Source: a virus
Lineage: Duplodnaviria > Heunggongvirae > Uroviricota > Caudoviricetes
Length of the DNA: 64,000 bases
Strand: one strand, 5' to 3'
Virus record (IMG/VR): IMGVR_UViG_3300028840_001821
Position numbers and translations under genes: made by a program. Below the pieces are notes generated by a model. It searched no databases. It was not told the origin of the DNA and saw only the letters and a program-made list of their open reading frames with translations. Positions 7,385 to 21,511 of this stretch are shown piece after piece. Within the stretch, counting starts at the first letter, position 1; each line of letters opens with the position of its first letter.

Positions 7385-7412
7385 TTGACTATCGCCCGCA
7401 GCATGGTATTCT
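7385..7412 (+). promoter_or_regulatory. sigma70-like promoter (TTGACT-N16-TATTCT)
   Basis: -35 at 7385-7390 and -10 at 7407-7412, followed by the leader tggggtgaag. Confidence 0.5.
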
Positions 7413-7462
7413 TGGGGTGAAGTCGAACGAAACACTTTTCTCTCTTGAAAGGAATTTGGATC

Positions 7463-8092
7463 ATGTCGGACAAGGAAACCAAGACCCGCGAGCGCAAGGT
7501 GACCGTCACGGACGAGATGCTCAAGAGCTACCGCGAGATCGGCAGCGAGACTCCGAGCCCGATGGCGACCCTGCTCCGCACCCTCCCGGACGCCGAGGCG
7601 AAGAAGCAGATCCAGCGCATCGAGAACGCGGTCGAGAAGAACAGCAAGGACCGACTGGCGTCGGACGAGGGCTACCAGAGTGCCCGCAAGCTGTTCGAGG
7701 CGGCGAAGAACACCTTCTACCGCACCCGCAACAAGCTGACCGTCGAGGACGTCTCGATCGAGAACCCGGACTTCGACTCCGACCAGCCGGTGAGCGAAGA
7801 GAATCCCGCGAAGATCATCATCAAGCGCAACGGCTTCGAGTCCCGCCGTGCCGCGCTCCGCGAGAAGATCGCCGAAGAGGACGCCAAGGAAGCGTCGGCG
7901 GCGGCGGAGACCGCGACGGGCGAGAACTTCGACCCGAAGCAGGAGATCAGCGAGACCAACATGCCCGAGGGCGTGCTGCACAAGAACATGCGCGAGGCGC
8001 AGGAGAGAAAGCGGGCTCTCGCCCGCAAGGCGATGGGACTCAACGGCACCGACCAGGAGACCCCGCCCGAGGTCCTGACCGACGGCGAGTAG
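7463..8092 (+). CDS. hypothetical acidic protein
   Basis: ATG after leader ..gaaaggaatttggatcATG. The track start (TTG 7445) reads the leader as protein. Confidence 0.5.
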   Translation: MSDKETKTRERKVTVTDEMLKSYREIGSETPSPMATLLRTLPDAEAKKQIQRIENAVEKNSKDRLASDEGYQSARKLFEAAKNTFYRTRNKLTVEDVSIENPDFDSDQPVSEENPAKIIIKRNGFESRRAALREKIAEEDAKEASAAAETATGENFDPKQEISETNMPEGVLHKNMREAQERKRALARKAMGLNGTDQETPPEVLTDGE

Positions 8093-8436
8093 AATACCGA
8101 CAGACCCCAACTTCCTCCGCATAGGGACCGCCCGGCTTCGCCGGGCGTGTCCCGACTTTTAACACTTTCGGGCTCACGGGTAACATCCTTGTAGGACGCG
8201 GGTAGCTAACCCATCAATACGGGACTGCCAACGCATGGGTTCCGGAGCCCGATTTATGGACGGGTCCGCTGGATCGGCGGGTCAGCGCAGTAATCAGATC
8301 ATCCCGGTGGGTTCGATTCCCACGCCCGTCCACCCTCCAACTTCGGATCTACCGGTCCGAACGTCCCACCTCTGTTCTGCCTTACGGGCGATTTCTCCCC
8401 GCGAATAAGGTCCCCCAGGTTTCTTTGAAAAAGAAT

Positions 8437-8464
8437 TTGACTTCACGCGCTCCGGGTGTATACT
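8437..8464 (+). promoter_or_regulatory. sigma70-like promoter (TTGACT-N16-TATACT)
   Basis: Followed by the conserved leader tggggtgaaaggaaacgaaacccaATG. Confidence 0.55.
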
Positions 8465-8488
8465 TGGGGTGAAAGGAAACGAAACCCA

Positions 8489-8977
8489 ATGATCGTAACA
8501 GAGCAAGAGATTCGGAAACTGGTCAGGGTCAAGGGGCATACCACGCCCGCCACCTACGAGGACGCAGTGCAAGAGGCTCTACTGGCGGCTCACCTTGCCG
8601 AGCAAGAGAAACCCGACAACAAGCAGTTCGCTATCGGTCGGGCGATCACGGCGGCGCGTAACTTCACGCGGAAAGAGCGTGCCAGGGGACGCCACGAAGG
8701 CGGCGGAGAGTTCTGCCAGGGACTCGACATCCATGACGAAGAGGTCGCCAACCAGCTTATCGCCCCCGTGCCGGACTTCTCCCCGGCGCAGGTGGACGCG
8801 CTTCACGCCTTCGTCGAGGAGCAGGACGAGCCGACCCGCGAGATCATGGCGGCGATCCTTGCCGGCGATAGCATGATGCGAATCAGCAACCGCACCGGCA
8901 GGAGCCACAGCGACGTGTGCCGCATCGTGCGGCGGTTCAAGGAAGCGGCATCCAGGGAACTGGAGGGGGTGGAATAA
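8489..8977 (+). CDS. sigma-factor-like protein (region 4 HTH)
   Basis: The C-terminal ..EIMAAILAGDSMMRISNRTGRSHSDVCRIVRRFKEAAS resembles a sigma70/ECF region 4.2 HTH. Confidence 0.45.
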   Translation: MIVTEQEIRKLVRVKGHTTPATYEDAVQEALLAAHLAEQEKPDNKQFAIGRAITAARNFTRKERARGRHEGGGEFCQGLDIHDEEVANQLIAPVPDFSPAQVDALHAFVEEQDEPTREIMAAILAGDSMMRISNRTGRSHSDVCRIVRRFKEAASRELEGVE

Positions 8978-8993
8978 CCGCCCTTCGGGGCGG
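8978..8993 (+). terminator. GC hairpin after stop (ccgcccttcggggcgg)
   Basis: Perfect stem with a uucg-type loop immediately after the TAA stop; there is no T-run. Confidence 0.35.
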
Positions 8994-9022
8994 GGGAAGA
9001 CAAAAGAGTAAAGGATCTGAAC

Positions 9023-9397
9023 ATGACAATCAGACCATCTCAGTGCCACGATTTTCCCGTCGGCGAGTGCTGGCGGGACCACTGCGGCGAGGGCGTTCAC
9101 AAGGTCTATGATGGTAGCTGGTTCGAGAATGACGACGGACCTGATGATACCGGCTACTACATCTACCAGAGCCAGGTAGACCAGATGTGGGTGGTCGAGC
9201 GGGCGCTGATGTGCAATCCCTACGACAGCCCGGAGAATCGCCCTGTTGCCAAGTTCGCCGATGAGCAAGAGGCAATCAACTACGCCGTGGGGCTTGCCAG
9301 GGATAACGCTCGCACGATAGCCGCCCGGGTAGAGACCCACCTCAAGGACTACGCGGATCGGCTTTGGGCGAACGAGACCAAGGCGGCAGGGATCTAA
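9023..9397 (+). CDS. hypothetical protein
   Basis: RBS aaaggatctgaacATG, 124 aa. Confidence 0.5.
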   Translation: MTIRPSQCHDFPVGECWRDHCGEGVHKVYDGSWFENDDGPDDTGYYIYQSQVDQMWVVERALMCNPYDSPENRPVAKFADEQEAINYAVGLARDNARTIAARVETHLKDYADRLWANETKAAGI

Positions 9398-9729
9398 CCG
9401 GCTTTGCCGTGCTAACGAGAACGAGAATTGGAAGTGTAAATAGGAATCCGAGTTGGAGGTCTGCATCAATATTATATATGCGACCCTGGACCTTCCTACC
9501 TCTGGATCTTAAGATCTGAAACTCCGAAGTTCACGGAGTCTCAGAATGGGAATCTCAGAATGAGACGTCCCTGGAATGGGAATCTGGTTCCGTCGCCCAA
9601 GAATACCACATTCTCACGACGAGTCAAGCACAAAATCGGCGATTTTGGTAAATACGTTCAGGTCTGAACCTCTCCGCCCCCAACGCGCAGCGGTCTCAAA
9701 ATGAGAATGCAAAATTCCAGAAAAACGGT

Positions 9730-9757
9730 TTGACAATCGAATCTCATGAGTTATAAT
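9730..9757 (+). promoter_or_regulatory. sigma70 consensus promoter (TTGACA-N16-TATAAT)
   Basis: Followed by the leader aggggtgaaaggaaagaaaaccATG. Confidence 0.6.
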
Positions 9758-9779
9758 AGGGGTGAAAGGAAAGAAAACC

Positions 9780-10502
9780 ATGAAACTACTATCGGTCGGA
9801 TCGGACGCGAAAACGGTCAAGGGCGAAAAACTCGGGTATCTAACGGGTATCCTGTATCTCAGTCCCGCCGATGAGATTCCCGGGCAGAACCTATGCCCGT
9901 TCGCTTCCCCGGGTTGCCGTGCCGCGTGCCTGTATACCGCCGGGCGCGGTGCTATGGCGAACGTGAAAGCCGGGCGCGTGCGGAAAACGCTTCTCTTCGT
10001 CGAGGACCGGGAGGTATTTCTTTCTCAGTTACGGGCAGATATTTCCCGGTTGGTGAATCAAGCGCGGAAAAAGGGAATGCGTCCCGTTGTGAGACTCAAC
10101 GGCACGAGCGATCTTCCGTTCGAGAAAATTTTTCCCGATCTTTTCGCGGAATTTCCTCAAGTCCAATATATGGACTATACCAAGAATCCGTATCGGATGC
10201 GGAAATTTCTTCGCGGTGGATTGCCCGCGAACTATCACTTGACCTTTTCCCGAAGTGAGACGAATCACCGGACGGCGCTTTCGATTCTCAAATCGGGAGG
10301 GCAGGTAGCCGTGGTCTTCTCCGGGAAAATTCTTCCGCCCGATTGGAAGGGATTCCCGGTTCGAGACGGCGACGCCCACGACGCGAGATTCTCAGATCGG
10401 GACGGCGTGATCGGTCTGGTTTCGAAAGGGCAGGCGTCTCGGGATGAGACGGGTTTCGTGGTCGATCCCGGATTCCCGCAGGGGAAAAAGATCAAACGGT
10501 AG
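9780..10502 (+). CDS. hypothetical protein with Cys motif (CPFASPGCRAACLY)
   Basis: 240 aa. The C..SPGC..AC.Y motif resembles the N-terminal Cys cluster of the phage Gp37/Gp68 (DUF5131)-type family; this match is tentative. Confidence 0.45.
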   Translation: MKLLSVGSDAKTVKGEKLGYLTGILYLSPADEIPGQNLCPFASPGCRAACLYTAGRGAMANVKAGRVRKTLLFVEDREVFLSQLRADISRLVNQARKKGMRPVVRLNGTSDLPFEKIFPDLFAEFPQVQYMDYTKNPYRMRKFLRGGLPANYHLTFSRSETNHRTALSILKSGGQVAVVFSGKILPPDWKGFPVRDGDAHDARFSDRDGVIGLVSKGQASRDETGFVVDPGFPQGKKIKR

Positions 10503-10664
10503 GAACATCTGAAACAACATGGTTTGTCCTCCTTTCGCAAAGTGAGACGCGGGGTAACTCCCCGCGATCTCGCTATCGAACTAACGATGAAAAGGTCTGA
10601 ACGTTGTTAGCGTGCTGTCAAAATGCGCGGACAAATGCGTCGGACAGAAAGTTTTGATTATCAC

Positions 10665-10692
10665 TTGACAGCGCCGCCCTATAGGATATAAT
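10665..10692 (+). promoter_or_regulatory. sigma70 consensus promoter (TTGACA-N16-TATAAT)
   Basis: The block cttgacagcgccgccctataggatataattagggtgaaaggg is nearly identical to the block at 11082. Confidence 0.6.
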
Positions 10693-10715
10693 TAGGGTGA
10701 AAGGGACAAACAACC

Positions 10716-10934
10716 ATGAGCAACATCGAAATTCTGGACGACGGGCGAACCGTCGGCTACAACGTGCGCGACCTACTGCGCGAGGCAATCAAGGATATGG
10801 ACGTTCCCGAGATGAGACGCGACACATCAAGCGACTCAAACGTCCGATGGTTGAGCCGAAACCTCGCCATCCAAAATCGGGACAACGAGAATTTCCGCGT
10901 GGCGATGCACTTCATCCGCGCCCTACTGTCATGA
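10716..10934 (+). CDS. hypothetical protein
   Basis: 72 aa. The track ORF 10697..11101 is a frame that begins in the leader. Confidence 0.45.
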   Translation: MSNIEILDDGRTVGYNVRDLLREAIKDMDVPEMRRDTSSDSNVRWLSRNLAIQNRDNENFRVAMHFIRALLS

Positions 10935-11101
10935 GTAACCGATCAGAACATCGTAAGGTAGCAGCGAAACGCGCCGGTAAGGGCGGAGTAAACTGCTACT
11001 GCTGCGATCCGTCACCCCGCGAGAAGAAGAAATTCTTTCGCACTATCCGGCGGATACTCAAGAGAAAATTCCGAAAGGAACTTGACAGCGCCGCCGGGTA
11101 G
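10931..11101 (+). CDS. small basic Cys protein
   Basis: ATGA overlap with the upstream stop; 56 aa (..GVNCYCCDPSPREKKKFFRTIRRILKRKFRK..). Its 3' end contains the next promoter. Confidence 0.35.
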   Translation: MSNRSEHRKVAAKRAGKGGVNCYCCDPSPREKKKFFRTIRRILKRKFRKELDSAAG

Positions 11102-11109
11102 GGTATAAT
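11082..11109 (+). promoter_or_regulatory. sigma70 consensus promoter (TTGACA-N16-TATAAT)
   Basis: A duplicate of the 10665 block, followed by the leader ggggtgaaaggaaggaaagccATG. Confidence 0.6.
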
Positions 11110-11131
11110 TGGGGTGAAAGGAAGGAAAGCC

Positions 11132-11479
11132 ATGAACGAGAAACCAACGGCAGAAAGCCTCGGACTCCACGCCGATACGCACGAGCGGTGGACGTGGTTC
11201 TCCCAAATCGGCTACAAACCGCCGCAGGAGGACGTCGATACCGTCCGCGAGGCGTTCTATCAGGACTATGAGTATGCCTGCTACAAGCGGGATACGTTCG
11301 AGTGGTTGGGCAACGTCAAGCCGAATCACCTTGCCGACGCGCAAGCCGGTGCCGACTCAAGGGGATTGGCGGTAGTCTTCCTGAAACTACCGATGCCCGC
11401 GCATGACCCGTCCGAACTGCCCGACGATGAGCCGCCAAGCGGGTGGGATTCATCGTGGGGGGAGGACCCGAGAGAATAA
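11132..11479 (+). CDS. hypothetical protein
   Basis: 115 aa, starting after the conserved leader. Confidence 0.5.
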   Translation: MNEKPTAESLGLHADTHERWTWFSQIGYKPPQEDVDTVREAFYQDYEYACYKRDTFEWLGNVKPNHLADAQAGADSRGLAVVFLKLPMPAHDPSELPDDEPPSGWDSSWGEDPRE

Positions 11480-11480
11480 C

Positions 11481-11565
11481 GGGCGTGAGACTGGCTTTCG
11501 ACCCGGCGTAAGACCCGAAAAGGGAGCGACCGGGGACCTCGGTTCAATTCCGAGCACGTCCACCA
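11481..11565 (+). ncRNA. tRNA-like structured RNA with encoded CCA
   Basis: The 5' gggcgtg pairs with the 3' cacgtcc acceptor, followed by A-CCA. There is a perfect T arm (ctcgg-ttcaatt-ccgag) and an internal stem (ctttcg/cgaaag). At 85 nt it does not fold as a standard cloverleaf in my hands. Confidence 0.4.
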
Positions 11566-11579
11566 GAATACCAAACGAT

Positions 11580-11735
11580 GGGAACGTCGGACCGCCGGGG
11601 AACCTTAGCGGGTTCCGTTAGGTAGCATAGTGCTTAGGTCCGGTTGAGAGACACCGAGCCGGATAGGTGTCAGTGGAAAGCCGTGCGCACGGTCGGAAGC
11701 GTTCGAGGCGGGGTGCAATTCCCCACGTTCCTACC
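11580..11735 (+). ncRNA. tRNA-like-ended structured RNA, about 155 nt
   Basis: The 5' gggaacg pairs with the 3' cgttcct at the far end, next to a T-arm-like cgggg-tgcaatt-cccc. The interior has several perfect hairpins (ggaacc-ttagcg-ggttcc, ccgtgcgcacgg, ccgg..ccgg). Confidence 0.3.
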
Positions 11736-11758
11736 CTTTTAATCCGAAATGCATTCTG

Positions 11759-11884
11759 CAAATAGGGTTTGATTTCCATGGCAGGAAAACGCCCCTATAG
11801 TAGTAGCGACGATCACATCCGAACATCTTTTTCTCATAACGAGACTTCGGACGTTTGGATCTGAACATCCGACCGGGGCGCGGA
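11759..11884 (+). repeat. composite intergenic repeat unit (copy a)
   Basis: caaataggg..ttccatggcaggaaaac..ccctatag, then 20 nt, then tccgaacatctttttctcataacgagac..cggacgtttggatctgaacatcc. Confidence 0.55.
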
Positions 11885-11957
11885 GCGAGTCTCATCCCGA
11901 GATTCCGATGTTCGGATAGGATTCTCTGACGGCTGCTGAGAAAAAAAGAAAATCACC

Positions 11958-11985
11958 TTGACGGCAAGCCACTTCGTGATATAAT
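11958..11985 (+). promoter_or_regulatory. sigma70 promoter (TTGACG-N16-TATAAT)
   Basis: Followed by the leader ggggtgaaaggcaaggaaacaaa..aaaggagcaaaatcATG. Confidence 0.6.
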
Positions 11986-12031
11986 TGGGGTGAAAGGCAA
12001 GGAAACAAACCCGCTCGAAAGGAGCAAAATC

Positions 12032-12760
12032 ATGAAGGCAACGCTCGAAATGGTCAAGGCGGTCGAGACCCCCGCCCCCACGGACACCTGGAACCCGATC
12101 TCGCACGTGGACTTCCTGGACGTGATCGAGTCGCAACTCCGGCAGGAAGGCTGGCGGTTGCACGAGACCCGGCACGATCTCGCAAAGGGCGGAATCCGCT
12201 ACACCGGACGCGCTCTCCTGATTCCGGCGGACGTGTCGGAAGTGGTTCGCGCCGGAGCGGACGTCAAGCTCATGCTCGGTTGGGCGAACTTCCTCGACAA
12301 GTCCCGGGCGGCGACGATTCTCGGCGGCTCGGACGTGTTTATCTGCTCGAACGGTCAGATGTTCGCGGAGCACAAGGTCTCCGGCAAGCACACCACGAAC
12401 GTAATCCGGACCCTCCGGTCGCGGTTCGCGGGTGCCCTGGACTCGATCCTGAACCGGTTCGACGATGAGGTCCGCCGGTTCGAGGAGTTCAAGGAAACCG
12501 CCCTGGAGCGCCCGGACATGGCGGAAATGATCCTCGACGCCCGCAAGCGGGGTGCCCTTCCCGCCGCCGACGTCCTCAAGGTGATGGCGGAATACGACGC
12601 CCCGTCCTTCGAGGAGTTCAAGGGCGGAACGGTCTGGACCGGGTTCAACGCCTTCACCACGGTCGCACGGGCGCGTTTCGAGAAGAATCCCGCCGCCGCC
12701 GCCGATGAGTCGCTCGCCTTGGGCGAACTGTTCGAGGAGCGATACCCGATCGCCAGCTAA
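12032..12760 (+). CDS. hypothetical protein
   Basis: Strong RBS aaaggagcaaaatcATG, 242 aa. The opposite-strand ORF 11834..12778 is judged spurious. Confidence 0.5.
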   Translation: MKATLEMVKAVETPAPTDTWNPISHVDFLDVIESQLRQEGWRLHETRHDLAKGGIRYTGRALLIPADVSEVVRAGADVKLMLGWANFLDKSRAATILGGSDVFICSNGQMFAEHKVSGKHTTNVIRTLRSRFAGALDSILNRFDDEVRRFEEFKETALERPDMAEMILDARKRGALPAADVLKVMAEYDAPSFEEFKGGTVWTGFNAFTTVARARFEKNPAAAADESLALGELFEERYPIAS

Positions 12761-12765
12761 CCGAC

Positions 12766-12790
12766 CACCGGACCGCAAGGTCCGGTGTTT
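12766..12790 (+). terminator. hairpin caccggaccgcaaggtccggtg plus uuu
   Basis: Perfect stem immediately after the stop codon. The same ggaccgcaaggtcc core recurs after other genes. Confidence 0.45.
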
Positions 12791-12863
12791 CCCTTAGCCG
12801 AACAAACGATGAAGCGGTCCGAACGTCGGTAGCCAGAGGGCAAAAAGAAATTCTGAAAAGGGT

Positions 12864-12891
12864 TTGACTAAGGCATTTGACGTGCTATAAT
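12864..12891 (+). promoter_or_regulatory. sigma70 promoter (TTGACT-N16-TATAAT)
   Basis: Followed by the leader aggggtaagaaaggacggaaaccATG. Confidence 0.6.
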
Positions 12892-12914
12892 AGGGGTAAG
12901 AAAGGACGGAAACC

Positions 12915-13262
12915 ATGAGCCTGAAAGACGAAATTCACGACGTGTTCGCCAGCGAGAACGCAGTGCTGGACCCGGACGACGCGGAGAACCTGACCGCCGC
13001 CCTGTTCGCGCAAGTGCCCGCGCTGGACTACAACATCAACCCCAACGGAATCACGGTCTGGACGCCCGACAAAGCGCCCGAGTGGGCGAAGAAGCACGCG
13101 CCGGAGAAGACCATGCACATAGCGTGGATTCCGATCACGGCGGGGCGAGTGACCGCCCTATTCGGTCCGGGGACCGCCTTCGGCAAGGGGTTCCAACTTC
13201 AGACGGTCACGCTTCCCGGGGACGTCAAGGGCTTTCTTGCCTACGGCACCGAAAGCGAGTAA
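12915..13262 (+). CDS. hypothetical protein
   Basis: 115 aa. Confidence 0.5.
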   Translation: MSLKDEIHDVFASENAVLDPDDAENLTAALFAQVPALDYNINPNGITVWTPDKAPEWAKKHAPEKTMHIAWIPITAGRVTALFGPGTAFGKGFQLQTVTLPGDVKGFLAYGTESE

Positions 13263-15612: not shown

Positions 15613-15657
15613 GTGCTCGCTGCAAATCCCGTGCCAAAAAGAAAAAACAAAAAGGGC

Positions 15658-15685
15658 TTTACTGTGAGCGATACCATGCTATAAT
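15658..15685 (+). promoter_or_regulatory. sigma70 promoter (TTTACT-N16-TATAAT)
   Basis: Followed by the leader aagagtgaaaggaaacagaacaATG. Confidence 0.5.
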
Positions 15686-15707
15686 AAGAGTGAAAGGAAA
15701 CAGAACA

Positions 15708-15893
15708 ATGGTCAACCCGAGAAACGCAAGGCGATACCTGATTCTAAGGGAATTGCTCCGGGACTTCGGACGATTCGCTCTCTACTTTGTAGTCGGGACA
15801 ATCGCGCTGTTTCTCATTTGGGGACTATGCGAGGGTATCAAGGATACGTGTTTCCCAAAATGGAACCACGTGCCCTATGTTGAGGGAAGGTGA
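15708..15893 (+). CDS. small membrane protein
   Basis: 61 aa containing a TM helix (FALYFVVGTIALFLIWGL). Confidence 0.45.
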   Translation: MVNPRNARRYLILRELLRDFGRFALYFVVGTIALFLIWGLCEGIKDTCFPKWNHVPYVEGR

Positions 15894-15896
15894 AAA

Positions 15897-16130
15897 ATGT
15901 TCCGGAGGAAGCGTAAGCTGGCAGTGACGCTGACCGTGAAAAAGGTTCCGGTCGAGGTCGAATACGAGCATTTCAATCTGAGACGCCGCGCAACGGTCGA
16001 GGTCGCCCCGTGTCTCAATGTGGAACGCACGATGCGCCGCGCCGAGAATCTCATTCGGAGAATGGTCGGTTTCGGCAACGGACCGGACAGTCTGAAAATC
16101 GTTCACACCAGCATGGTCGTCTCATCGTGA
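15897..16130 (+). CDS. hypothetical basic protein
   Basis: RBS gagggaaggtgaaaaATG, 77 aa. Confidence 0.4.
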   Translation: MFRRKRKLAVTLTVKKVPVEVEYEHFNLRRRATVEVAPCLNVERTMRRAENLIRRMVGFGNGPDSLKIVHTSMVVSS

Positions 16131-16221
16131 GACGGCGGGCGGACCAAGTGTCCGTCTTCTCTTACGAGCTAACGACGTTCGCATCCGAACAGCGGACCGG
16201 CGATTTCTTTTTGGTTTTTCC

Positions 16222-16249
16222 TGGACTCTCGCGCCCAATGGGCTATAAT
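16222..16249 (+). promoter_or_regulatory. promoter (TGGACT-N16-TATAAT)
   Basis: The block ctggactctcgcgcccaatgggctataatagaggtgaaaggg is nearly identical to the block at 18502. Confidence 0.5.
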
Positions 16250-16271
16250 AGAGGTGAAAGGGAAACAAATC

Positions 16272-16739
16272 ATGCGATACGAAGAACTGTTAGGAAGCCA
16301 CATAACGCCGATGGAAGCGGCGGAAATGGCGGAAGAGACAACCCCGTCGTGGCGTCCCGATCTGGAAGACGTTGGAACGTCCGAGGAAATGGCGTCGGTA
16401 ATGGGACGTTTCGCCGAGCGATTCGAGAGCGACATTCTCGAACTGAGAAAGATCCCGATTGCGGATTGCTGTGTCGGGTGGGCGACCGTTTGGGAAGACG
16501 CCGTCCAAGACTACGCCGAGCGCATGGCAGCGGGCGAAATGGACTATCCGCCGATCATCGCCAGCGCGAACGATCCCGAGGATACTTGGTCAAGCCGCTG
16601 GACCGTGGAAGACGGGTCGCACCGCTGTCTCGCTCTGAGACAGATCGGAATCACTCACGTATATGCTTACGTCGAAGTGGACGAACATCTTGAGCCGCTG
16701 GTCCTGAATACGACGCCGGATTTACCGTTTCCCGAATAG
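16272..16739 (+). CDS. ParB/sulfiredoxin-like domain protein
   Basis: The ..WTVEDGSHRCLALRQIGITHVYAYV.. motif (DGxHR..A) is typical of the ParB N-terminal nuclease/NTPase-like domain. Confidence 0.45.
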   Translation: MRYEELLGSHITPMEAAEMAEETTPSWRPDLEDVGTSEEMASVMGRFAERFESDILELRKIPIADCCVGWATVWEDAVQDYAERMAAGEMDYPPIIASANDPEDTWSSRWTVEDGSHRCLALRQIGITHVYAYVEVDEHLEPLVLNTTPDLPFPE

Positions 16740-16866
16740 AGACAACTGTTCTCCCCTTTCAAAATGAGACGACCGACCGAAACCCGAACGGGAAACTCGG
16801 TCGTCTCGCTTTGGGACACCGGCGGTTCGGACCTGAACGTCGCTACCACTTTATTCTAAATTTCGT

Positions 16867-16894
16867 TTGACTAATAGCCTGAAGGGACTATAAT
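16867..16894 (+). promoter_or_regulatory. sigma70 promoter (TTGACT-N16-TATAAT)
   Basis: Followed by atagttgaacggagagaaacATG. Confidence 0.55.
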
Positions 16895-16914
16895 ATAGTT
16901 GAACGGAGAGAAAC

Positions 16915-17292
16915 ATGTATATCAGATTCGAGATGAGCGGTCACGAACGGAACTACGGTATTTTTACCGGCTGGCGTGACGCTCTCGGTGTAAATTGGGA
17001 TGATGAGACTTATATCGAAATAGATGAGCTTATGGCGAAAGCTGGTAGGATACTGCCGGTCGCCCATATTCCCATGAACGGAGGTAGGTGCTGGTTTAAG
17101 GATACGCCCCAAACCAAGCAGGTTATCGAGCTTCTTCGTGACGCCGCCGACCTTATGCTGGACGTATACGACGTTTCTGTTTCTGAGATACATACAGAGG
17201 ACCTTGAGGTCGTTTGGGAAGATGAATTTCAGGTGGTGGTTCCCGAAGAAAATATGAGTTTTCCCTTGCGTAGCGCCGTTCCCGTGCTATAA
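16915..17292 (+). CDS. hypothetical protein
   Basis: 125 aa. Its 3' end carries the next promoter. Confidence 0.5.
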   Translation: MYIRFEMSGHERNYGIFTGWRDALGVNWDDETYIEIDELMAKAGRILPVAHIPMNGGRCWFKDTPQTKQVIELLRDAADLMLDVYDVSVSEIHTEDLEVVWEDEFQVVVPEENMSFPLRSAVPVL

Positions 17293-17293
17293 T
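17266..17293 (+). promoter_or_regulatory. promoter (TTGCGT-N16-TATAAT)
   Basis: Lies inside the end of the upstream gene, followed by the leader agaagtgaaagcaaaggagaacggaaacATG. Confidence 0.45.
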
Positions 17294-17321
17294 AGAAGTG
17301 AAAGCAAAGGAGAACGGAAAC

Positions 17322-17615
17322 ATGAGCTGGACAAAAGAATACTTCGATAGCCTTCCCCACCCGAAAACGATGAGCCTAACGGATCTTTTCGGGGAGATCG
17401 AGGGAGCGGGCGACAGCATCGCCGAAATCGAGGGTGAAATCGCCGCCTTCGGCGACAGCGCCCCGGGCACATACTGGATGCTGGCACGCTATCGCTGGGT
17501 GATCGGCGAGATTCGCCGCCGCGAGGACGTGGAACGCCAGCGCCAGCGCCAGCGCGACGAAGCGCGGGCACTATTCCGCCCGGCAGCGGACGGGCTGGAA
17601 GACGTCCCATTTTGA
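17322..17615 (+). CDS. hypothetical protein
   Basis: 97 aa with a C-terminal RQRQRQRD repeat. Confidence 0.5.
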   Translation: MSWTKEYFDSLPHPKTMSLTDLFGEIEGAGDSIAEIEGEIAAFGDSAPGTYWMLARYRWVIGEIRRREDVERQRQRQRDEARALFRPAADGLEDVPF

Positions 17616-17762
17616 AACACGCATGATTTCCTCCGGAGCGACCACCGGGTCCAGGTGAAGCGTCAGACTTACCGATCTAAACGTCGGTAAGGAGTCAGCC
17701 CTGCTCGGTGGTCTCTTTTTGATTCGCCTCGAACGTTCCGACCCGAACGTCGTTTGTAAACT

Positions 17763-17920
17763 ACAAATCTCTGCCGGATTGCAAGGCAGGGATTTTTACC
17801 TATAGAACAAAAGAGGATCAGATCTGAACATCGTTTTCTCATATCGAGACCCAACGAAATATCGGTGCGACGTTCCGATCTGAACGTCGGAAGCACAACG
17901 CGTCTCATTCTGAGACCAGC
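17763..17920 (+). repeat. composite intergenic repeat unit (copy d)
   Basis: caaatctctgccggattgcaaggcagggatttttacctataga..gatctgaacatcgttttctcatatcgagac..cgttccgatctgaacgtcgg..gtctcattctgagac. Confidence 0.55.
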
Positions 17921-17952
17921 AAATAGTGTGCCATAGAAAATAAAAAAAAAGC

Positions 17953-17980
17953 TTGACTGTGATCCCGTGCATGGTAGAAT
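17953..17980 (+). promoter_or_regulatory. sigma70 promoter (TTGACT-N16-TAGAAT)
   Basis: Followed by gagggtagaaacggagggacgaaATG. Confidence 0.5.
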
Positions 17981-18003
17981 GAGGGTAGAAACGGAGGGAC
18001 GAA

Positions 18004-18387
18004 ATGAAAATCGCAATCAAAGGCAAGGGCAAAAACGAGAAAGTCGCTCGCCTGATCCGCAATGGTTTTCCGTGGTATCGTAAGCACGCCGTCCACGTGC
18101 GCATCGGCACCACGGTGGAGCTACAAGGAACGGCATGGTTTGAGGGAAGCCGCTCGGACTACTACTGGTTCAACACAATCACTGGCGAGTCTCGCTCGAT
18201 CGGCGTTTCGCGTAATCCGGCGCAATTCGGAGGTCCGACGGAAACGCCTACGGTCGAGACCGGCGGGCATCGTGCGGTAGTCGAGGGCGGTTTTTTCTGC
18301 GGCAAGGCGTCCACGCTCATGATCGTAATCAATCCCGACGATGTGGGCGCGATCGGCGACGCTTATCGGGAAGCCGTCGCAGTCTGA
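18004..18387 (+). CDS. hypothetical protein
   Basis: 127 aa. Confidence 0.5.
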   Translation: MKIAIKGKGKNEKVARLIRNGFPWYRKHAVHVRIGTTVELQGTAWFEGSRSDYYWFNTITGESRSIGVSRNPAQFGGPTETPTVETGGHRAVVEGGFFCGKASTLMIVINPDDVGAIGDAYREAVAV

Positions 18388-18501
18388 GACAAGTTCTTCG
18401 TTCTCCCAATACGAGACGACCGACCGAATCCGGAACTCGGTCGTCTCACTTTTAGACTGAGTAAAGGACGTTTAGATCCGAACGTTTTCTTTAGATTTCG
18501 C

Positions 18502-18529
18502 TGGACTATCGCGCACAATGAGCTATAAT
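18502..18529 (+). promoter_or_regulatory. promoter (TGGACT-N16-TATAAT)
   Basis: A duplicate of the 16222 block, followed by agaagtagaaaggaaacgaaacATG. Confidence 0.5.
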
Positions 18530-18551
18530 AGAAGTAGAAAGGAAACGAAAC

Positions 18552-18911
18552 ATGCGAATCAAAGAAGTAACGGATCAAGGCGGCACGATCTTCGAGGGCG
18601 AAGTCTATCCCTTCGCGTGCTACTGCGGCGAGGAATACCAGACCGCCGAGGCGGCTTGGAATTGCCGCAAGTGCCGCACGTATCTCGAACCTGAAACGTT
18701 CGCCAACCGAGAGGTCTATCATTTCACCGGCGATCGTGAGCCGACGCAAGCGGAGTTGATGGAACCGACCCCGGAGTCGCTGGCGTTCGAGGCGATGTTC
18801 GATGAGGACGGACTCAGCGACGTCGAGGCGGACGCCATGACTCTCAGGGATGCCGGGATGGGCACCGATGAGGATTACGGATACTTCGGCGACGATGGCG
18901 ACGACTGGTAA
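18552..18911 (+). CDS. zinc-ribbon protein
   Basis: CYCGEEY..CRKCRTY, 119 aa with an acidic C-terminus. Confidence 0.5.
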   Translation: MRIKEVTDQGGTIFEGEVYPFACYCGEEYQTAEAAWNCRKCRTYLEPETFANREVYHFTGDREPTQAELMEPTPESLAFEAMFDEDGLSDVEADAMTLRDAGMGTDEDYGYFGDDGDDW

Positions 18912-18918
18912 AGGAGGA

Positions 18919-18941
18919 ACGGACCGAAAGGTCCGTTTCTT
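18919..18941 (+). terminator. hairpin acggaccgaaaggtccgt plus UUCUU
   Basis: Perfect 7-bp stem followed by a U-rich tail after the stop codon. Confidence 0.5.
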
Positions 18942-18999
18942 ACGGCGTGCTTCGGACGTTCGGATCCGAACATCGGTAGTAGAAATCTAAGAAAAAGGA

Positions 19000-19027
19000 T
19001 TGACAATCGTGCGGAGCACGGTATACT
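19000..19027 (+). promoter_or_regulatory. sigma70 promoter (TTGACA-N16-TATACT)
   Basis: Followed by gtaaatagaaaggcggagaacaATG. Confidence 0.55.
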
Positions 19028-19049
19028 GTAAATAGAAAGGCGGAGAACA

Positions 19050-19253
19050 ATGGCAGAACCGACCGAGAAAAGCCCAGCAATCAACGATCTTCTTTCCAAG
19101 CTCGCCGGACGTGACCGGGTCGAGTCAATCAAAAGTGACGATTGCGTCGCCTGCGGTGAGCCCGCGACGGAGTTCAACGATGAGATCAGCGAGCGGGAGT
19201 TCAAGATCTCCGGACTCTGCCAGGATTGCCAAGACGACTTCTTCGGCACCTAA
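19050..19253 (+). CDS. small zinc-binding protein
   Basis: 67 aa, DDCVACGEP..CQDCQDD. Confidence 0.45.
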   Translation: MAEPTEKSPAINDLLSKLAGRDRVESIKSDDCVACGEPATEFNDEISEREFKISGLCQDCQDDFFGT

Positions 19254-19330
19254 CAGCCCGGCGTTACCACGTGGTAACGTCGCCGCTCGTGATAACGACG
19301 TTCAAGCCCGAACCTATTTAGAAGAATGCC

Positions 19331-19358
19331 TTGACAACGGTATTAACTATGATATAAT
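19331..19358 (+). promoter_or_regulatory. sigma70 consensus promoter (TTGACA-N16-TATAAT)
   Basis: Followed by gtaaatagaaaaggagaacaaacATG. Confidence 0.6.
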
Positions 19359-19381
19359 GTAAATAGAAAAGGAGAACAAAC

Positions 19382-19615
19382 ATGCCCCACTGGATCAAAA
19401 GACGCGAAGCCGAAAACAGGATCGACCTGGCAAAAGATTCCGCCTTCTATGGTGGTATCGCGGACCTGGTGGTCTATCTCCAGAGCGAAAAGTTCCATAC
19501 CGATACGACCGTCCAGGTGAGCGACGTTCTCAATCGGATACAAGCTGCCAAGGATCAAGCCGAAGAAGCGAAAGCCGAACAAGCCCGATACGAGACGGAT
19601 AGGGGTAATCTCTAA
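19382..19615 (+). CDS. hypothetical protein
   Basis: 77 aa. Confidence 0.45.
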   Translation: MPHWIKRREAENRIDLAKDSAFYGGIADLVVYLQSEKFHTDTTVQVSDVLNRIQAAKDQAEEAKAEQARYETDRGNL

Positions 19616-19620
19616 ATGAG

Positions 19621-19645
19621 ACGGGGCGCAAGCCCCGTTCTCTCA
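19621..19645 (+). terminator. hairpin acggggcgcaagccccgt plus ucucuc
   Basis: GC stem with a gcaa loop right after the stop codon. Confidence 0.4.
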
Positions 19646-19713
19646 CCGCCCGCGCCATACGTTCGGACCCGAACATCGGTAGCAGACCGGCAAAAAGAAA
19701 TTCTGAAAAAGAC

Positions 19714-19741
19714 TGGACTGAAACCGCCCGCGTGCTATAAT
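19714..19741 (+). promoter_or_regulatory. promoter (TGGACT-N16-TATAAT)
   Basis: Followed by acaagtagaaaggacggagaacaATG. Confidence 0.5.
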
Positions 19742-19764
19742 ACAAGTAGAAAGGACGGAGAACA

Positions 19765-20001
19765 ATGATCGAAAACAATCGCGCAACTGTCGCCAAGTGG
19801 ATCGATACCGATCGCTTCTCGTATCTGGTAGTGGATCACGCCGGAAACACGGACTTCGCTGAGGTCCCGATGGCGGACCCTCGGGTCGTTTGGGTGAACT
19901 CGGTAATCGCTTCTTCGCTCGCCCGCTTCTACAACCAGAACGGGAACGCCGCTGGCGGGCACTACATCGCCGTGGTCGAGATCCCCACCGTCACCGCCTA
20001 A
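19765..20001 (+). CDS. hypothetical protein
   Basis: 78 aa. Confidence 0.45.
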   Translation: MIENNRATVAKWIDTDRFSYLVVDHAGNTDFAEVPMADPRVVWVNSVIASSLARFYNQNGNAAGGHYIAVVEIPTVTA

Positions 20002-20022
20002 TCGAAAACCAAAATCACAAAT

Positions 20023-20041
20023 GCCCCGGAAAACCCGGGGC
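20023..20041 (+). terminator. hairpin gccccggaaaacccggggc
   Basis: Perfect 7-bp GC stem after the stop; no clear U-run. Confidence 0.35.
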
Positions 20042-20062
20042 ACAGAATCTCTCTTATATAGG

Positions 20063-20360
20063 TTCGGACCTAGCGATCTGAACATCTTTTTCTCATTCTG
20101 AGACGTCTCGTTTTGAGACGTGCGAAATCGCACGCCGAGAAATTCTTTCCGTTACCGCACGGTAACGTCTCGAAATGATAATCGGACGTTCGGATCGGAA
20201 CGTTGTGTCATTCTGAGAATACGCACGGCGCATTACGCACGGCGCGTATTCTCATTCTGAGCTTGCGACGTTCGGACCTGATTCTCTTTTTCTCTTTACG
20301 AGATTCTATCGATTGGCACGGGAATTGCTTTGTGTCTCATTCTGAGACAAAAGAAAATCC
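20063..20360 (+). repeat. cluster of GTCTCA/TGAGAC palindromes and GGAYCTGAACRTC units (copy e)
   Basis: ggttcggacctagcgatctgaacatctttttctcattctgagacgtctcgttttgagacg, followed by three more TCTCATTCTGAGA units and a hairpin gagaatacgc..gcgtattctc. Confidence 0.55.
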
Positions 20361-20431
20361 GGAATGGACTAAAGGAAAACCCGGAAACCGCCGATAAGTA
20401 AAGTAGGCAAGCAAAAGAAAGGAAAACGAAA

Positions 20432-20521
20432 ATGAGAATCTCGAAACTCGGAACGGTTTTCGCTCTCGGGTTCGCCCTGGGAATGGCGTTTTCCGCTCTC
20501 ATAGTGGGACTGGTAGGATGA
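20432..20521 (+). CDS. 29-aa hydrophobic micro-peptide
   Basis: Leader gcaaaagaaaggaaaacgaaaATG, MRISKLGTVFALGFALGMAFSALIVGLVG. Its stop overlaps the next ATG. Confidence 0.3.
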   Translation: MRISKLGTVFALGFALGMAFSALIVGLVG

Positions 20522-20703
20522 TAGTCCTTCTCAATCCGAGACTCGCCGAAACGTTGGATCTCGAAATGATCCGTCGGGAATTGCCCGGGGTTCAAATTGA
20601 GGTCCAGGAAGAACGCCGGGATCTCGAAACGAGACCGCCGGAAAAGGGAATCGACGAAACATGGCGGGAACGCGCTAAGTCGTTGGGCTATAACGTCTTA
20701 TGA
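20518..20703 (+). CDS. hypothetical protein
   Basis: 61 aa, ATGA-coupled to the upstream micro-ORF. Confidence 0.4.
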   Translation: MIVLLNPRLAETLDLEMIRRELPGVQIEVQEERRDLETRPPEKGIDETWRERAKSLGYNVL

Positions 20704-20729
20704 CGATTCGCGCGGAATCGGGAAATCAC

Positions 20730-20757
20730 TTGACCCGTTCCGACCCTATGGTAGAAT
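20730..20757 (+). promoter_or_regulatory. sigma70 promoter (TTGACC-N16-TAGAAT)
   Basis: Followed by gtaagtgaaaggggattcaaacATG. Confidence 0.5.
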
Positions 20758-20779
20758 GTAAGTGAAAGGGGATTCAAAC

Positions 20780-21031
20780 ATGAAAAAGCAAACGGTCGAA
20801 TCGGACGGAAAAGTTTACCACTTGACGCCCAAAAACGAGACTCGTCCCGTTTTGGGACCGACGGAAATTCCTTCCCACGGACGCCGATTCCGGGGCAGGA
20901 TCATTCTGAGAAACGCCGCCGGAGAAACCACGTGGGAAAATTCTCAGAATGAGGTTGGAATCCAGGGTTTCCGCCCCGTGAGAATCCGCTACAATGCGGA
21001 AACGGGAACGGCGGAAGTGGCGTCCTACTAA
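20780..21031 (+). CDS. hypothetical protein
   Basis: 83 aa. Confidence 0.45.
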   Translation: MKKQTVESDGKVYHLTPKNETRPVLGPTEIPSHGRRFRGRIILRNAAGETTWENSQNEVGIQGFRPVRIRYNAETGTAEVASY

Positions 21032-21068
21032 CGAGTTAGGCGGTTCCGGTCTTTTTCTCGGAATCGCC

Positions 21069-21096
21069 TTGCAATCCGCCCCTACTATGGTATTCT
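21069..21096 (+). promoter_or_regulatory. promoter (TTGCAA-N16-TATTCT)
   Basis: The -10 context atggtattcttagggtgaa matches the 7385 promoter (atggtattcttggggtgaa). Confidence 0.45.
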
Positions 21097-21145
21097 TAGG
21101 GTGAATAGGGGACACGAAAACAGCACAAACGAAAGGAAATCAGCT

Positions 21146-21511
21146 ATGTTCGGAAATGAGACTACCACCTACGCACTACGGATCACCAGCGCGGTTCTCA
21201 AACTGGGACTCGCCTACTCCCCGGAAATCGTTTCCGAAGCGGGCGTCCCGGAAGCATACGGGCAAAAAATTCTCACCAAGCTCTCCCGGGCGGGTATCAT
21301 TTTGAGCCGCAAGGGTCGCGGGCACGGATGCGGAATCCGTATCAATCCGGAACGGCTGGAAACGCCGCTCGCGGAAATCTTTTCCCTCTTCGCCCCGCCC
21401 CGTCTCGAAATGGAGAATGCCGGACCTGCGGGTCGGGTTCTGGACGGTCTCCTGAAGGGTCTCGAAACGAGAACCGCCAGTCTCAAAGTGAGAGATCTCC
21501 AGGACGGCTAA
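21146..21511 (+). CDS. Rrf2-family (winged-helix) transcriptional regulator
   Basis: TYALRITSAVLKLGLAY..EIVSEAGVPEAYGQKILTKLSRAGIILSRKGRGHGCGIRI matches the Rrf2/BadM HTH pattern (YALR..L..LA..IS...GI....L.KIL.KL.KAG.I.S.RG..GGY.L). Confidence 0.55.
   Translation: MFGNETTTYALRITSAVLKLGLAYSPEIVSEAGVPEAYGQKILTKLSRAGIILSRKGRGHGCGIRINPERLETPLAEIFSLFAPPRLEMENAGPAGRVLDGLLKGLETRTASLKVRDLQDG

Follow-up and report, generated by a model that had tools for sequence, protein, structure and literature searches.

In T4-type phages (RB49, phi1, T4/PST and KVP40/nt-1) small genes are carried in PeSL (promoter-early stem-loop) cassettes, which run from a stop codon through a stem-loop, an A/T-rich block, a sigma-70 promoter and a Shine-Dalgarno sequence to the next ATG (PMC2839356, PMC4122927). 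About 50 such repeats lie upstream of ORFans, and their promoter activity, terminator activity and recombination have been shown experimentally (PMC2839356, PMC4122927). Recombination between the motifs yields mini-circles and chimeric motifs. Here we describe an array of promoter-bearing cassettes at positions 7385-21511 of a 64,000-nucleotide stretch of tailed-phage DNA (IMG/VR record IMGVR_UViG_3300028840_001821; this whole stretch is called the window). We think it likely that the region is an early block of an uncultivated phage, dependent on the host RNA polymerase and built from duplicated expression modules of fixed geometry. The initial annotation of the DNA knew of no comparable established phage family; the layout does, however, match the PeSL cassettes (PMC2839356, PMC4122927) and the SPO1 module described below (PMC6873191), and the array adds a clean case to the early-gene cassettes already described in large lytic phages; it does not represent a new type of system.

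Like the PeSL cassettes, the array has a repeated consensus sigma-70-like promoter (22 sites, scoring 22-69 bits) with an A/T-rich block upstream (A+T 0.62), a Shine-Dalgarno sequence and start codon at the 3' end of the module (GAAAGGA in 20/27, ATG after 14-18 nt in 16/22) and small ORFans in a plastic region, where relatives differ by insertion, deletion and replacement of cassettes (16/28 open reading frames (ORFs) here lack a homologue). It differs in that (i) the phage is not T4-type, its terminase being ~25% identical to those of Bacillus siphophages; (ii) the modules form one contiguous, co-oriented 14-kb block; (iii) the stem-loop follows the stop codon instead of lying in the spacer between -35 and -10, as it does in the commonest PeSL form, spacer dyads being significant in one relative (L020) only; and (iv) the geometry from -10 to ATG is nearly fixed and there are two extra conserved palindromes (motifs A and B).

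The host-takeover module of the Bacillus subtilis phage SPO1 (genes 37-60) is summarised in a later account as a 12.4-kb cluster of 26 small early genes whose promoters and ribosome-binding sites are those typical of high expression (PMC6873191, citing Stewart et al. 1998). The module lies in the terminal redundancy of the SPO1 genome, and its products stop macromolecular synthesis or cell division in the host. The likeness lies in ~25 small early genes arranged in short operons with strong promoters and ribosome-binding sites (28 ORFs, 14.1 kb and 22 promoters here). The two differ in that most products here have no family match, and neither megablast of 7000-22500 against phage records, which gave no match, nor a PHROGs search of the early ORFs, which gave only three families, all unnamed, revealed any sequence homology to SPO1 genes 37-60 or to the Herelleviridae. 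SPO1 gp28 is a phage sigma factor that drives the next temporal class, a role that we propose also for a sigma factor of this phage, although here the sigma gene lies inside the array. Because the phage is neither T4-type nor SPO1-related, the array belongs to neither group in the strict sense.

Two other systems share single features with the array. The early promoters of T4 and T5 are numerous, very strong and of host type, are conserved beyond the two hexamers (in A-rich sequence upstream and in bases that follow the -10) and are used as soon as infection begins; here, in contrast, the spacer is uniformly 16 nt and the conserved part runs into the Shine-Dalgarno sequence, with a leader of ~16-17 nt. 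The ECF-family sigma factors of phiEco32-type phages are small two-domain proteins encoded among the early genes and are presumed to redirect the host RNA polymerase. The window likewise encodes a predicted small two-domain sigma factor among its early genes, with 10-20% identity to solved sigma factors and TATCGTATA as its candidate specificity. The array is characterised by its uniform 16-nt spacer, a Shine-Dalgarno sequence at the 5' end of a ~17-nt leader, the early-specific type of that Shine-Dalgarno sequence and the two palindromes; the occurrence of palindromes between units, a tmRNA-like mini-RNA and a coding density of 65% are new details. The PeSL/host-takeover layout, known from T4-type coliphages, vibriophages and SPO1, is thereby extended to an unrelated clade of uncultivated large phages.

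The promoter array

With a regular expression for both hexamers, 19 strict sites were obtained between 8437 and 20730, each of them on the + strand and with a 16-nt spacer; elsewhere in the window the expression gave only scattered weak matches. A consensus scanner applied to 6700-22500 found 34 promoter-like sites, compared with 7.5 ± 2.5 in dinucleotide shuffles, and its 19 best sites (10-12/12 hexamer matches) were all on the + strand with a spacer of 16. In the structural region used as a control (29300-49299) there were 11 promoter-like sites vs 13.1 ± 4.1 in shuffles. From the 19 strict sites we built a position weight matrix of 83 columns, extending from 25 nt upstream of -35 to 30 nt downstream of -10. 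Scanning the window with this matrix gave 22 sites at 7385-21069, all on the + strand; the next-best score in the 64 kb, on either strand, was 0.6 bits, and the maximum in shuffles was 6.7. These results demonstrate that the array is real, strand-specific and restricted to this block, and they bear out the original count of about 22 near-consensus promoters with a 16-nt spacer. An exact-pattern scan of IMG/VR for TATAATNGGGGTGAAAGG returned 11 single matches on unrelated contigs and no arrays, which we attribute to chance.

The modules share a detailed anatomy. The 24 nt upstream of -35 are rich in A+T (0.62 vs 0.45 for the region) and particularly in A (0.38 vs 0.26), with CAAAAAGAAATTCTGAAAAAG recurring. 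The -35 hexamer types include TTGACA, TTGACT, TGGACT, TTTACT and TTGATT, the spacer is exactly 16 nt throughout, and the -10 hexamer is TATAAT in 16/22 modules (otherwise TATACT, TAGAAT or TATTCT), with a preceding TGn in 12/22. After the -10 comes a discriminator of four mostly purine bases, often GGGG, and then G; the T six nt after -10 is invariant in the 19 sites used to build the matrix, and T followed by a purine (G/A) is found at 22/22. We took this purine, 7 nt after -10, as the predicted start, following normal promoter geometry and the preference for a pyrimidine at -1 and a purine at +1. The predicted leader, from start to ATG, is then 14-18 nt long in 16/22 modules (median 17), and the predicted RNA 5' ends are GAAAGGAAAC... 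or AGAAAGGA.... The conserved "leader" RGRGTGAAAGGAAAC therefore appears to be a discriminator (probably untranscribed), a start site and a Shine-Dalgarno sequence at the mRNA 5' end; it thus belongs to the duplicated promoter module and does not form an RNA element of its own.

Over 14.1 kb, 28 ORFs of 29-242 aa (median 115) are grouped into 23 units and served by the 22 promoters. The claim that nearly every small gene has its own promoter holds as far as the number of promoters goes, but five of the 23 units hold two ORFs, which overlap at ATGA in three cases, and the unit at 20432-20703 has no recognisable promoter. Furthermore, the promoters at 11082 and 17266 sit within the preceding ORF, which leaves their units without insulation. 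Three pairs of promoter blocks had been called almost verbatim duplicates, which is too strong: over 45 nt the identity is 82% for 10665/11082, 84% for 16222/18502 and 62% for 7385/21069, compared with a family mean of 54%.

One module stands apart in its leader. The matrix score of unit 8 is low because its leader differs, being a structured-looking stretch (13398-13562) closed by GCTTAAGACC and GGACCTTAAGC that has no match in Rfam. Similar 5' ends (GTGAGC..GAGACCT) follow promoters in the related loci L018 (14974) and L020 (11808), while in L024 the same ORF has a standard short leader.

Related lineages and cassette turnover

Relatives were found in metagenome assemblies through homologues of the GP88-family protein (61-72% identity) and the sigma-like protein (45-58%). 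They form three lineages (L018/L019, L020 and L023/L024), and the related loci are partial. Their G+C content is 44-47%, vs 53% for the window. Common to them is the order dCMP deaminase, non-coding gap, gene 1, sigma and GP88; in the window the called genes on either side of this gap are ~0.4 kb apart, and the gap measures 0.9-1.3 kb in L018, L020 and L023. The leader recurs in related metagenomic phages, where the initial annotation had proposed to look for it, with modules in all three lineages: 15 matrix matches in L018, at least 12 modules in L020 (spacers of 16 or 17 nt) and 19 within 11.7 kb in L024, all on the + strand. Orthologous promoters are shared, e.g. the TTGACT-16-TATACT-TrGGGTGAAAGGAAAC of the sigma gene. 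The matrix found no modules in L021, an unrelated GP88-bearing phage, or in the terminase relatives L012-L015, which do not cover the early region, and no GP88 relatives were found in IMG/VR. In L020 the 16-17-nt spacers of the promoters at 8696-19444 almost always hold a GC-rich dyad, although the sequences of these dyads differ (e.g. ATGCCGGGCGGCAT and CGGGCTTCGCCCG), and 0/300 shuffles match this; stem-loops in the -35/-10 spacers of the window are not enriched (236/300 shuffles equal or better).

Homologues in one or more relatives exist for 12 of the 28 window ORFs, and 16/28 have none in the four related loci. Eleven of the 12 are collinear and aligned over most of their length; for 12915-13262 the match is partial and confined to 37 residues in L023. 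The cassette 10665-11101 is absent from L023, and the promoter blocks that flank it share even their spacer (GCGCCGCC). L024 lacks counterparts of ORFs 16272, 16915 and 17322; of these, 16272 lies behind promoter 16222, which is 84% identical to the downstream promoter 18502. Judged from gene content, this combination of a conserved backbone with lineage-specific ORFans between repeated blocks is the pattern that would be expected if the regulatory repeats were places where cassettes are acquired, lost and duplicated, in agreement with the cassette duplication and shuffling originally proposed.

The abundance of repeats raises the question of whether the blocks are chiefly selfish, i.e. mobile, promoter-bearing miniature repeats for which expression of the neighbouring ORF is a by-product. 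The 82-84% identity of promoter pairs, the coding density of just 65% and the presence of a number of repeat families, among them a five-copy composite of ~100-160 nt, would all be compatible with this. We nevertheless consider it quite improbable, as every copy is co-oriented with the genes at a fixed distance from the start codon, orthologous promoters are kept before orthologous genes in diverged relatives, and neither terminal inverted repeats nor target-site duplications were seen.

Shine-Dalgarno classes of early and late genes

Early genes have a Shine-Dalgarno sequence of the GAAAGGA type. AAAGG or GAAAG occurs between -25 and -4 in 20/27 early genes, 3/31 late genes and 2/19 other genes (early vs 5/50, Fisher p = 1.7e-8), late genes using GGAGG, GGGGGTG or GGAGGTG. 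Both types fit the template AGAAAGGAGGTGATC, the early type corresponding to its 5' part and the late type to its centre and 3' part, and the mean longest exact match to the anti-Shine-Dalgarno complement is 6.6 nt for early genes vs 4.5 nt for late genes. The template would be complementary to a host 16S rRNA tail ending in ..CCUCCUUUCU-3' or similar, a tail that would pair with AGAAAGGAGGUG. On sequence grounds the purine-rich leader, annotated before as a Shine-Dalgarno analogue, reads as a true Shine-Dalgarno sequence that is specific to early genes; by the counts above it is not a general ribosome-binding site used genome-wide, which the initial annotation had named as an outcome that would refute its reading.

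A class difference as sharp as this could also arise if the leader were mainly a regulatory target, with a phage factor (a RegB-like endoribonuclease or a translational repressor) recognising GAAAGGA 5' ends and selectively shutting off early translation while the late mRNAs with GGAGG or GGGGGTG escape. There is precedent in T4, where RegB cuts GGAG in early Shine-Dalgarno sequences, and the leader has been kept in four lineages despite a difference of 9-10 points in G+C. However, the motif is an ordinary Shine-Dalgarno complement, its conservation is explained equally well by module duplication together with selection for strong pairing to the 16S 3' end, and the early ORFs that were searched yielded no protein resembling RegB or RegA. 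We therefore regard a mainly regulatory role as unlikely.

Hairpins downstream of the units

A hairpin of -12 to -27 kcal/mol is present near the stop codon in 19 of the 22 gaps examined (those long enough), and the hairpins after units are more stable than coding controls (mean -18.0 vs -13.8 kcal/mol, p = 5e-4). The statement that most genes end in a GC hairpin is thus correct, but the sequence given as frequent, GGACCGNAAGGTCC (GGACCG[CA]AAGGTCC), occurs only three times (12770, 14999 and 18921) and U-tracts are mostly missing. Canonical terminators, i.e. a hairpin with a U-tract, are not enriched (23 vs 20.2 ± 4.5 in shuffles); the tails are pyrimidine-rich with seldom a T-run, most having 0-2 T. 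As most hairpins lack a U-tract and two promoters lie in upstream ORFs, the terms "autonomous" for the units and "terminators" for the hairpins were overstated.

It is possible, although we do not favour it, that the units are not autonomous at all and that many additive promoters instead give rise to long read-through transcripts, with the hairpins (possibly also motif A) serving to stabilise or process 3' ends. RNase III sites occur in the early RNAs of T7 and SP82. The near-background number of U-tract terminators and the positions of promoters 11082 and 17266 would be as expected in this case, and a Pistol ribozyme in the early region of a relative and tRNA-like elements after two ORFs (both described below) suggest RNA processing. 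Each unit nevertheless has its own full-strength promoter, which would be redundant in an operon, and the hairpins are significantly above background and directly follow stop codons. In addition, a role of motif A as an RNA hairpin is unsupported by its mismatches and folding scores (given below), and PeSL stem-loops of this kind have been shown experimentally to terminate (PMC2839356).

Early products, the phage sigma factor and a second promoter-like motif

Most of the early ORFs are ORFans. Family or fold matches were obtained for four products only, i.e. the ECF-like sigma, the GP88-family protein, a DUF932 protein and a weakly Rrf2-like winged-helix protein (ORF 21146-21511; Pfam Rrf2 E = 1.5e-6, 28.9 bits, just under the cut-off of 30). 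The description of the products as mostly Cys-rich, acidic or membrane proteins applies in part: the 28 include five Cys-rich products, 13 with a pI below 5 (acidic) and two that appear to span the membrane.

Fold comparison predicts that ORF 8489-8977 (gene 2) is a two-domain ECF-like sigma factor with the sigma2 and sigma4 folds and without regions 1 and 3. Its sequence profile matches are weak (Pfam Sigma70_r2 E = 0.02, below the cut-off; PDB profile SigL E = 0.07), and its identification therefore comes from the fold comparison. A sigma alignment scan of reference genomes found only distant actinobacterial sigma genes and so gave no clue to the host. The array promoters are of the housekeeping-sigma type, with consensus hexamers, TGn in 12/22 modules and the A-rich block upstream; recognition of TGn requires sigma region 3, which the 162-aa phage sigma lacks. 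With the sigma gene second in the array one could suppose that the phage's own sigma, not the host housekeeping sigma, reads the array promoters, but this is extremely unlikely. The sigma gene is itself behind an array-type promoter, and hence another holoenzyme must act first. Moreover, TTGACA/TATAAT with TGn is the consensus of group-1 sigmas, while ECF sigmas, which are without region 3, recognise AAC/CGT-type elements, and it is a different, CGTATA-containing motif that marks genes outside the array.

This second motif, TATCGTATA, has five exact copies in the window, all on the + strand and outside the array (22079, 35584, 38340, 42007 and 58070), and a variant, TAACGTATA, at 47652 (+); the motif can be written (T)TTATCGTATA(W)(W). 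Gaps immediately preceding late or other genes contain the first four copies and the variant, and the fifth copy (58070) falls inside ORF 57842-58420. Two orthologous copies (7437 and 14773) are found in L012, whose terminase is 81% identical. When one mismatch was allowed the total was not above chance (10 vs 7.7), so the weight rests on the exact copies, their strand, positions and conservation. We infer a link to the phage ECF-like sigma, for which TATCGTATA is a candidate promoter, and the motif together with the early-encoded sigma suggests a temporal cascade.

Proposed mode of operation

Under our preferred reading of a host-dependent early block, the host housekeeping holoenzyme would fire all of the modules at once on entry of the phage DNA. 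Each module would give a short mRNA starting at or next to its Shine-Dalgarno sequence, so that the small early proteins could be made fast and abundantly. The hairpins would attenuate read-through and/or protect 3' ends, and the phage sigma would then steer RNA polymerase to the next temporal class. At the DNA level, the repeated regulatory blocks would supply homology for recombination that adds, deletes or swaps ORFan cassettes, as for the T4-type PeSL. A role in host takeover is suggested by the layout.

Several points weigh against this reading. The start sites, timing and termination are all predictions, the assignment to host sigma-70/sigma-A comes solely from the promoter consensus, and none of the products has a demonstrated host-directed function. 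Without enrichment of U-tracts, and with promoters 11082 and 17266 inside ORFs, read-through and overlapping transcripts are likely. Recombination at the blocks is deduced from differences in gene content between four lineages only, with partial loci, and the ~35% of the region that is non-coding, with its motif A and B palindromes, is left unaccounted for.

The array is unusually regular, with a near-invariant spacer, predicted start and leader length, which makes it a handy natural set of ~22 graded strong promoter/ribosome-binding-site modules. It is also well suited to asking if ORFan turnover is driven by the repetition of regulatory blocks. Host takeover and anti-defence are candidate functions of its 28 small early proteins, most of which are ORFans. 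Novelty might be sought in the two palindrome families, the early-specific Shine-Dalgarno sequence and the tmRNA-like domain without an mRNA part.

Palindromes, repeats and small RNAs between units

Motif A (Table 1) lies ~21-32 nt past the 3' hairpin, as judged by eye for inspected copies, and 25-144 nt ahead of the next -35. The heptamer TCCGAAC occurs 12 times in the early region vs twice in the other 48 kb, and motif A is conserved in L018, L020 and L024, with the consensus TTCGGAyGTTnnGATCYGAACAT over 56 copies (strands 56 + : 22 -). We looked at two other roles for it. That of an RNA hairpin is unsupported: it folds weakly (z ~ -1), and with unbiased choice of copies its G:U mismatches (44) are not above A:C (59). 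That of an ECF-type -35 is rejected, as it lacks a downstream element at a fixed distance (information ~0 beyond +12), and its variable spacing to motif B (15-26 nt) also counts against a bipartite promoter of that type. Our best guess is that motif A would be a DNA operator for a dimeric protein. Motif B has 18 matches on the + strand, 17 of them within 7076-21870, at distances from -35 that cluster at 35-36 and 58 nt, and it too is conserved in L018, L020 and L024.

Composite repeats matching the five in the window are found near 17160 in L018 and near 18370 and 18975 in L020. Their GGCAG-N11-TATAG, considered by eye as a sigma-54- or T7-like promoter, was discarded because its positions vary and the window has no matching polymerase.

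The mini-RNA at 11481-11565 (+), 85 nt long, matches the Rfam tmRNA model with 50.2 bits (gathering 47) at both model ends, with 21 nt where the model has ~312, and corresponds to a tRNA-like domain from which the mRNA-like part is missing. Its features include a G3:U70 pair, a CUGG..UUCGAC segment of tmRNA type and ACCA encoded in the gene. The RNA begins 2 nt past the stop codon of ORF 11132-11479, and L018 has a homologue (13565-13645) after the orthologous ORF. We found no description of a natural tmRNA consisting of the tRNA-like domain alone in the literature searched. In L024 a Pistol self-cleaving ribozyme (750-813 (+); 51.1 bits, gathering 34.5) is situated between gene 1 and that for the sigma-like protein, a short way before a tRNA-like T arm (1067-1081); no ribozyme was detected at the corresponding position of the window.

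These elements allow a more speculative view, which we hold to be rather doubtful, in which the array is a clade-specific early-expression system under central control. Motifs A and B would act as operators through which one phage or host regulator switches the 22 promoters or blocks read-through, and the early-only Shine-Dalgarno sequence, which would pair with the extreme 3' tail of the 16S RNA from the mRNA 5' end, would be a handle for class-specific translational shut-off. The co-transcribed tRNA-like and tmRNA-like mini-RNAs could form a third layer, acting on the ribosome.

Table 1. Transcription units of the array and elements between them. Promoters are given as -35 hexamer, spacer length and -10 hexamer; leaders run from the predicted start to ATG.
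Feature	Position (strand)	Promoter	Matrix score (bits)	Leader	ORFs (product)	Other features
Unit 1	7385-8092 (+)	TTGACT-16-TATTCT	40.0	44 nt	7463-8092 (209 aa)	ORF 50-62% identical in L018, L020, L023/24; hairpin 8124-8153, -26.8 kcal/mol
Unit 2	8437-9397 (+)	TTGACT-16-TATACT		18 nt, GAAAGGAAAC..	8489-8977 (predicted ECF-like sigma, 162 aa); 9023-9397 (124 aa)	
Unit 3	9730-10502 (+)	TTGACA-16-TATAAT	61.3	16 nt	9780-10502 (GP88 family, 240 aa)	PF17338 E = 4e-47; hairpin 10541-10574, -24.8 kcal/mol
Unit 4	10665-11101 (+)	TTGACA-16-TATAAT	62.4	17 nt	10716-10934; 10931-11101 (overlapping)	specific to the window phage (homologue in 0/4 related loci)
Unit 5	11082-11565 (+)	TTGACA-16-TATAAT	62.8	16 nt	11132-11479	promoter inside end of ORF 10931-11101; tmRNA-like mini-RNA 11481-11565
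Unit 6	11958-12760 (+)	TTGACG-16-TATAAT	56.3	40 nt, second GAAAGGAG near ATG	12032-12760 (DUF932)	PF06067 E = 8e-10; hairpin with GCAA loop, core 12766-12787
Unit 7	12864-13262 (+)	TTGACT-16-TATAAT	67.9	17 nt	12915-13262	hairpin 13263-13303, -20.1 kcal/mol
Unit 8	13364-13724 (+)	TTGACA-16-TATAAT	22.7	165 nt, structured-looking (13398-13562)	13563-13724 (53 aa)	hexamer matches 12/12; ORF kept in all related loci
Unit 9	13925-14209 (+)	TGGACT-16-TATAAT	62.3	29 nt	13988-14209 (Cys-rich, acidic)	
Unit 10	14440-14990 (+)	TTTACT-16-TATAAT	59.1	17 nt	14491-14646; 14643-14990 (Cys-rich) (overlapping)	both ORFs conserved in L018, L020, L024; hairpin 14992-15019, GCAA loop
Unit 11	15068-15477 (+)	TTGATT-16-TATAAT	65.6	16 nt	15118-15477 (10 Cys)	
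Unit 12	15658-16130 (+)	TTTACT-16-TATAAT	68.1	16 nt	15708-15893 (membrane-like); 15897-16130	hairpin 16125-16167, -21.3 kcal/mol
Unit 13	16222-16739 (+)	TGGACT-16-TATAAT	62.7	16 nt	16272-16739	ORF absent from relatives
Unit 14	16867-17292 (+)	TTGACT-16-TATAAT	54.3	14 nt	16915-17292	
Unit 15	17266-17615 (+)	weak -35 TTGCGT; TGcTATAAT	45.6	22 nt	17322-17615	promoter within preceding ORF
Unit 16	17953-18387 (+)	TTGACT-16-TAGAAT	58.7	17 nt	18004-18387	L024 homologue; hairpin 18413-18447, -22.1 kcal/mol
Unit 17	18502-18911 (+)	TGGACT-16-TATAAT	67.7	16 nt	18552-18911 (Cys-rich, acidic)	hairpin 18914-18941, GAAA loop
Unit 18	19000-19253 (+)	TTGACA-16-TATACT	47.0	16 nt	19050-19253 (Cys-rich)	
Unit 19	19331-19615 (+)	TTGACA-16-TATAAT	54.8	17 nt	19382-19615	L018 homologue
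Unit 20	19714-20001 (+)	TGGACT-16-TATAAT	68.6	17 nt	19765-20001	
Unit 21	20432-20703 (+)	no matrix match			20432-20521 (29 aa, membrane-like); 20518-20703	early-type Shine-Dalgarno AGAAAGGAAAAC
Unit 22	20730-21031 (+)	TTGACC-16-TAGAAT	43.3	16 nt	20780-21031	
Unit 23	21069-21511 (+)	TTGCAA-16-TATTCT	24.1	43 nt	21146-21511 (weakly Rrf2-like winged helix)	
Array-closing terminator (predicted)	21511-21550 (+)					stem ACCTTCCC/GGGAAGGT, then TTTTTCTTTG; -22.9 kcal/mol; the only clearly canonical one in the array
Motif A	7195-21762 (+)					~28 copies of GATCYGAACRT, often as palindrome CGGACGTTCGGATCCGAACATCGG; in nearly every gap between 3' hairpin and next promoter
Motif A anchors, first half	7197, 7243, 8357, 9017, 9664, 10597, 11819, 11861, 12819, 13322, 13801, 13866, 14374, 15044					
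Motif A anchors, second half	15542, 15598, 16833, 17743, 17824, 17880, 18478, 18966, 19308, 19669, 20078, 20196, 21652, 21754					
Motif A, best single palindrome	18953-18976 (+)					CGGACGTTCGGATCCGAACATCGG; Watson-Crick at 10/12 positions
Motif B	7076-21882					palindromes GTCTCA-N3-TGAGAC (TCTCA-N3-5-GAGA), often directly upstream of A-rich block
Composite repeat, ~100-160 nt, 5 copies	11747-20103 (+): 11747, 13729, 15470, 17752, 20006					hairpin, CCTATAG, motif A half-site, TTTTTCTCATTCNGAGA
tRNA-like element	8258-8331 (+)					downstream of unit 1; 7-bp acceptor stem, T arm GGTGGGTTCGATTCCCACG; tRNA-Sec 26.5 bits, below gathering; no ARAGORN call
Second tRNA-like element	~11580-11735 (+)					7-bp acceptor stem, T arm, ~110-nt insert; no ARAGORN call

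Genome setting and elements outside the array

Pfam domains identify the window as part of a tailed phage, with a large terminase at 33474-35579 and a 1261-aa tail tape-measure protein. No nucleotide match to the window was found among 50,697 deposited phage genomes; the best terminase matches in these records were the Bacillus siphophages noted above, none reaching 80% query coverage, and the structural ORFs gave no T4-specific Pfam matches. The window sequence is also present in JGI metagenome 3300017971, a contig of which spans the upstream boundary, and in a Logan assembly; the longest contig with the GP88 gene of the window is 169,698 bp. Thirty tRNA genes are clustered at 24097-29268 (+), with small ORFs between them, in the same orientation as the early array.

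Coding sequence makes up 65% of 7385-21511, and much of the remaining ~35% is taken up by conserved palindromes and small structured RNAs, which the initial annotation had not noted. The array is flanked by non-coding stretches at 6740-7385 (~650 bp) and 21550-22380 (~830 bp), both with many copies of motifs A and B; equivalent gaps of ~0.9-1.3 kb lie before gene 1 in L018, L020 and L023. The end of the genome, an origin or a control region could be marked by these stretches.

Two sites outside the array have only a -10. At 5945-5985 (+), among ORFs for small membrane proteins, an early-type -10 and leader without a -35 (GAGTTATAACAGTAGAAAGGGG) precede an ATG at 5983. Downstream of the dCMP deaminase gene, at 1296-1690 (+), the site GAGTTATAATAGTGAAGG is followed by ~380 nt of structured-looking non-coding sequence that closes with a predicted terminator, GCCGGAGCC..GGCGCTTTTTT. 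This element has no match in Rfam; its 5' part is recognisable in L020 (~4487), and it may be a phage non-coding RNA.

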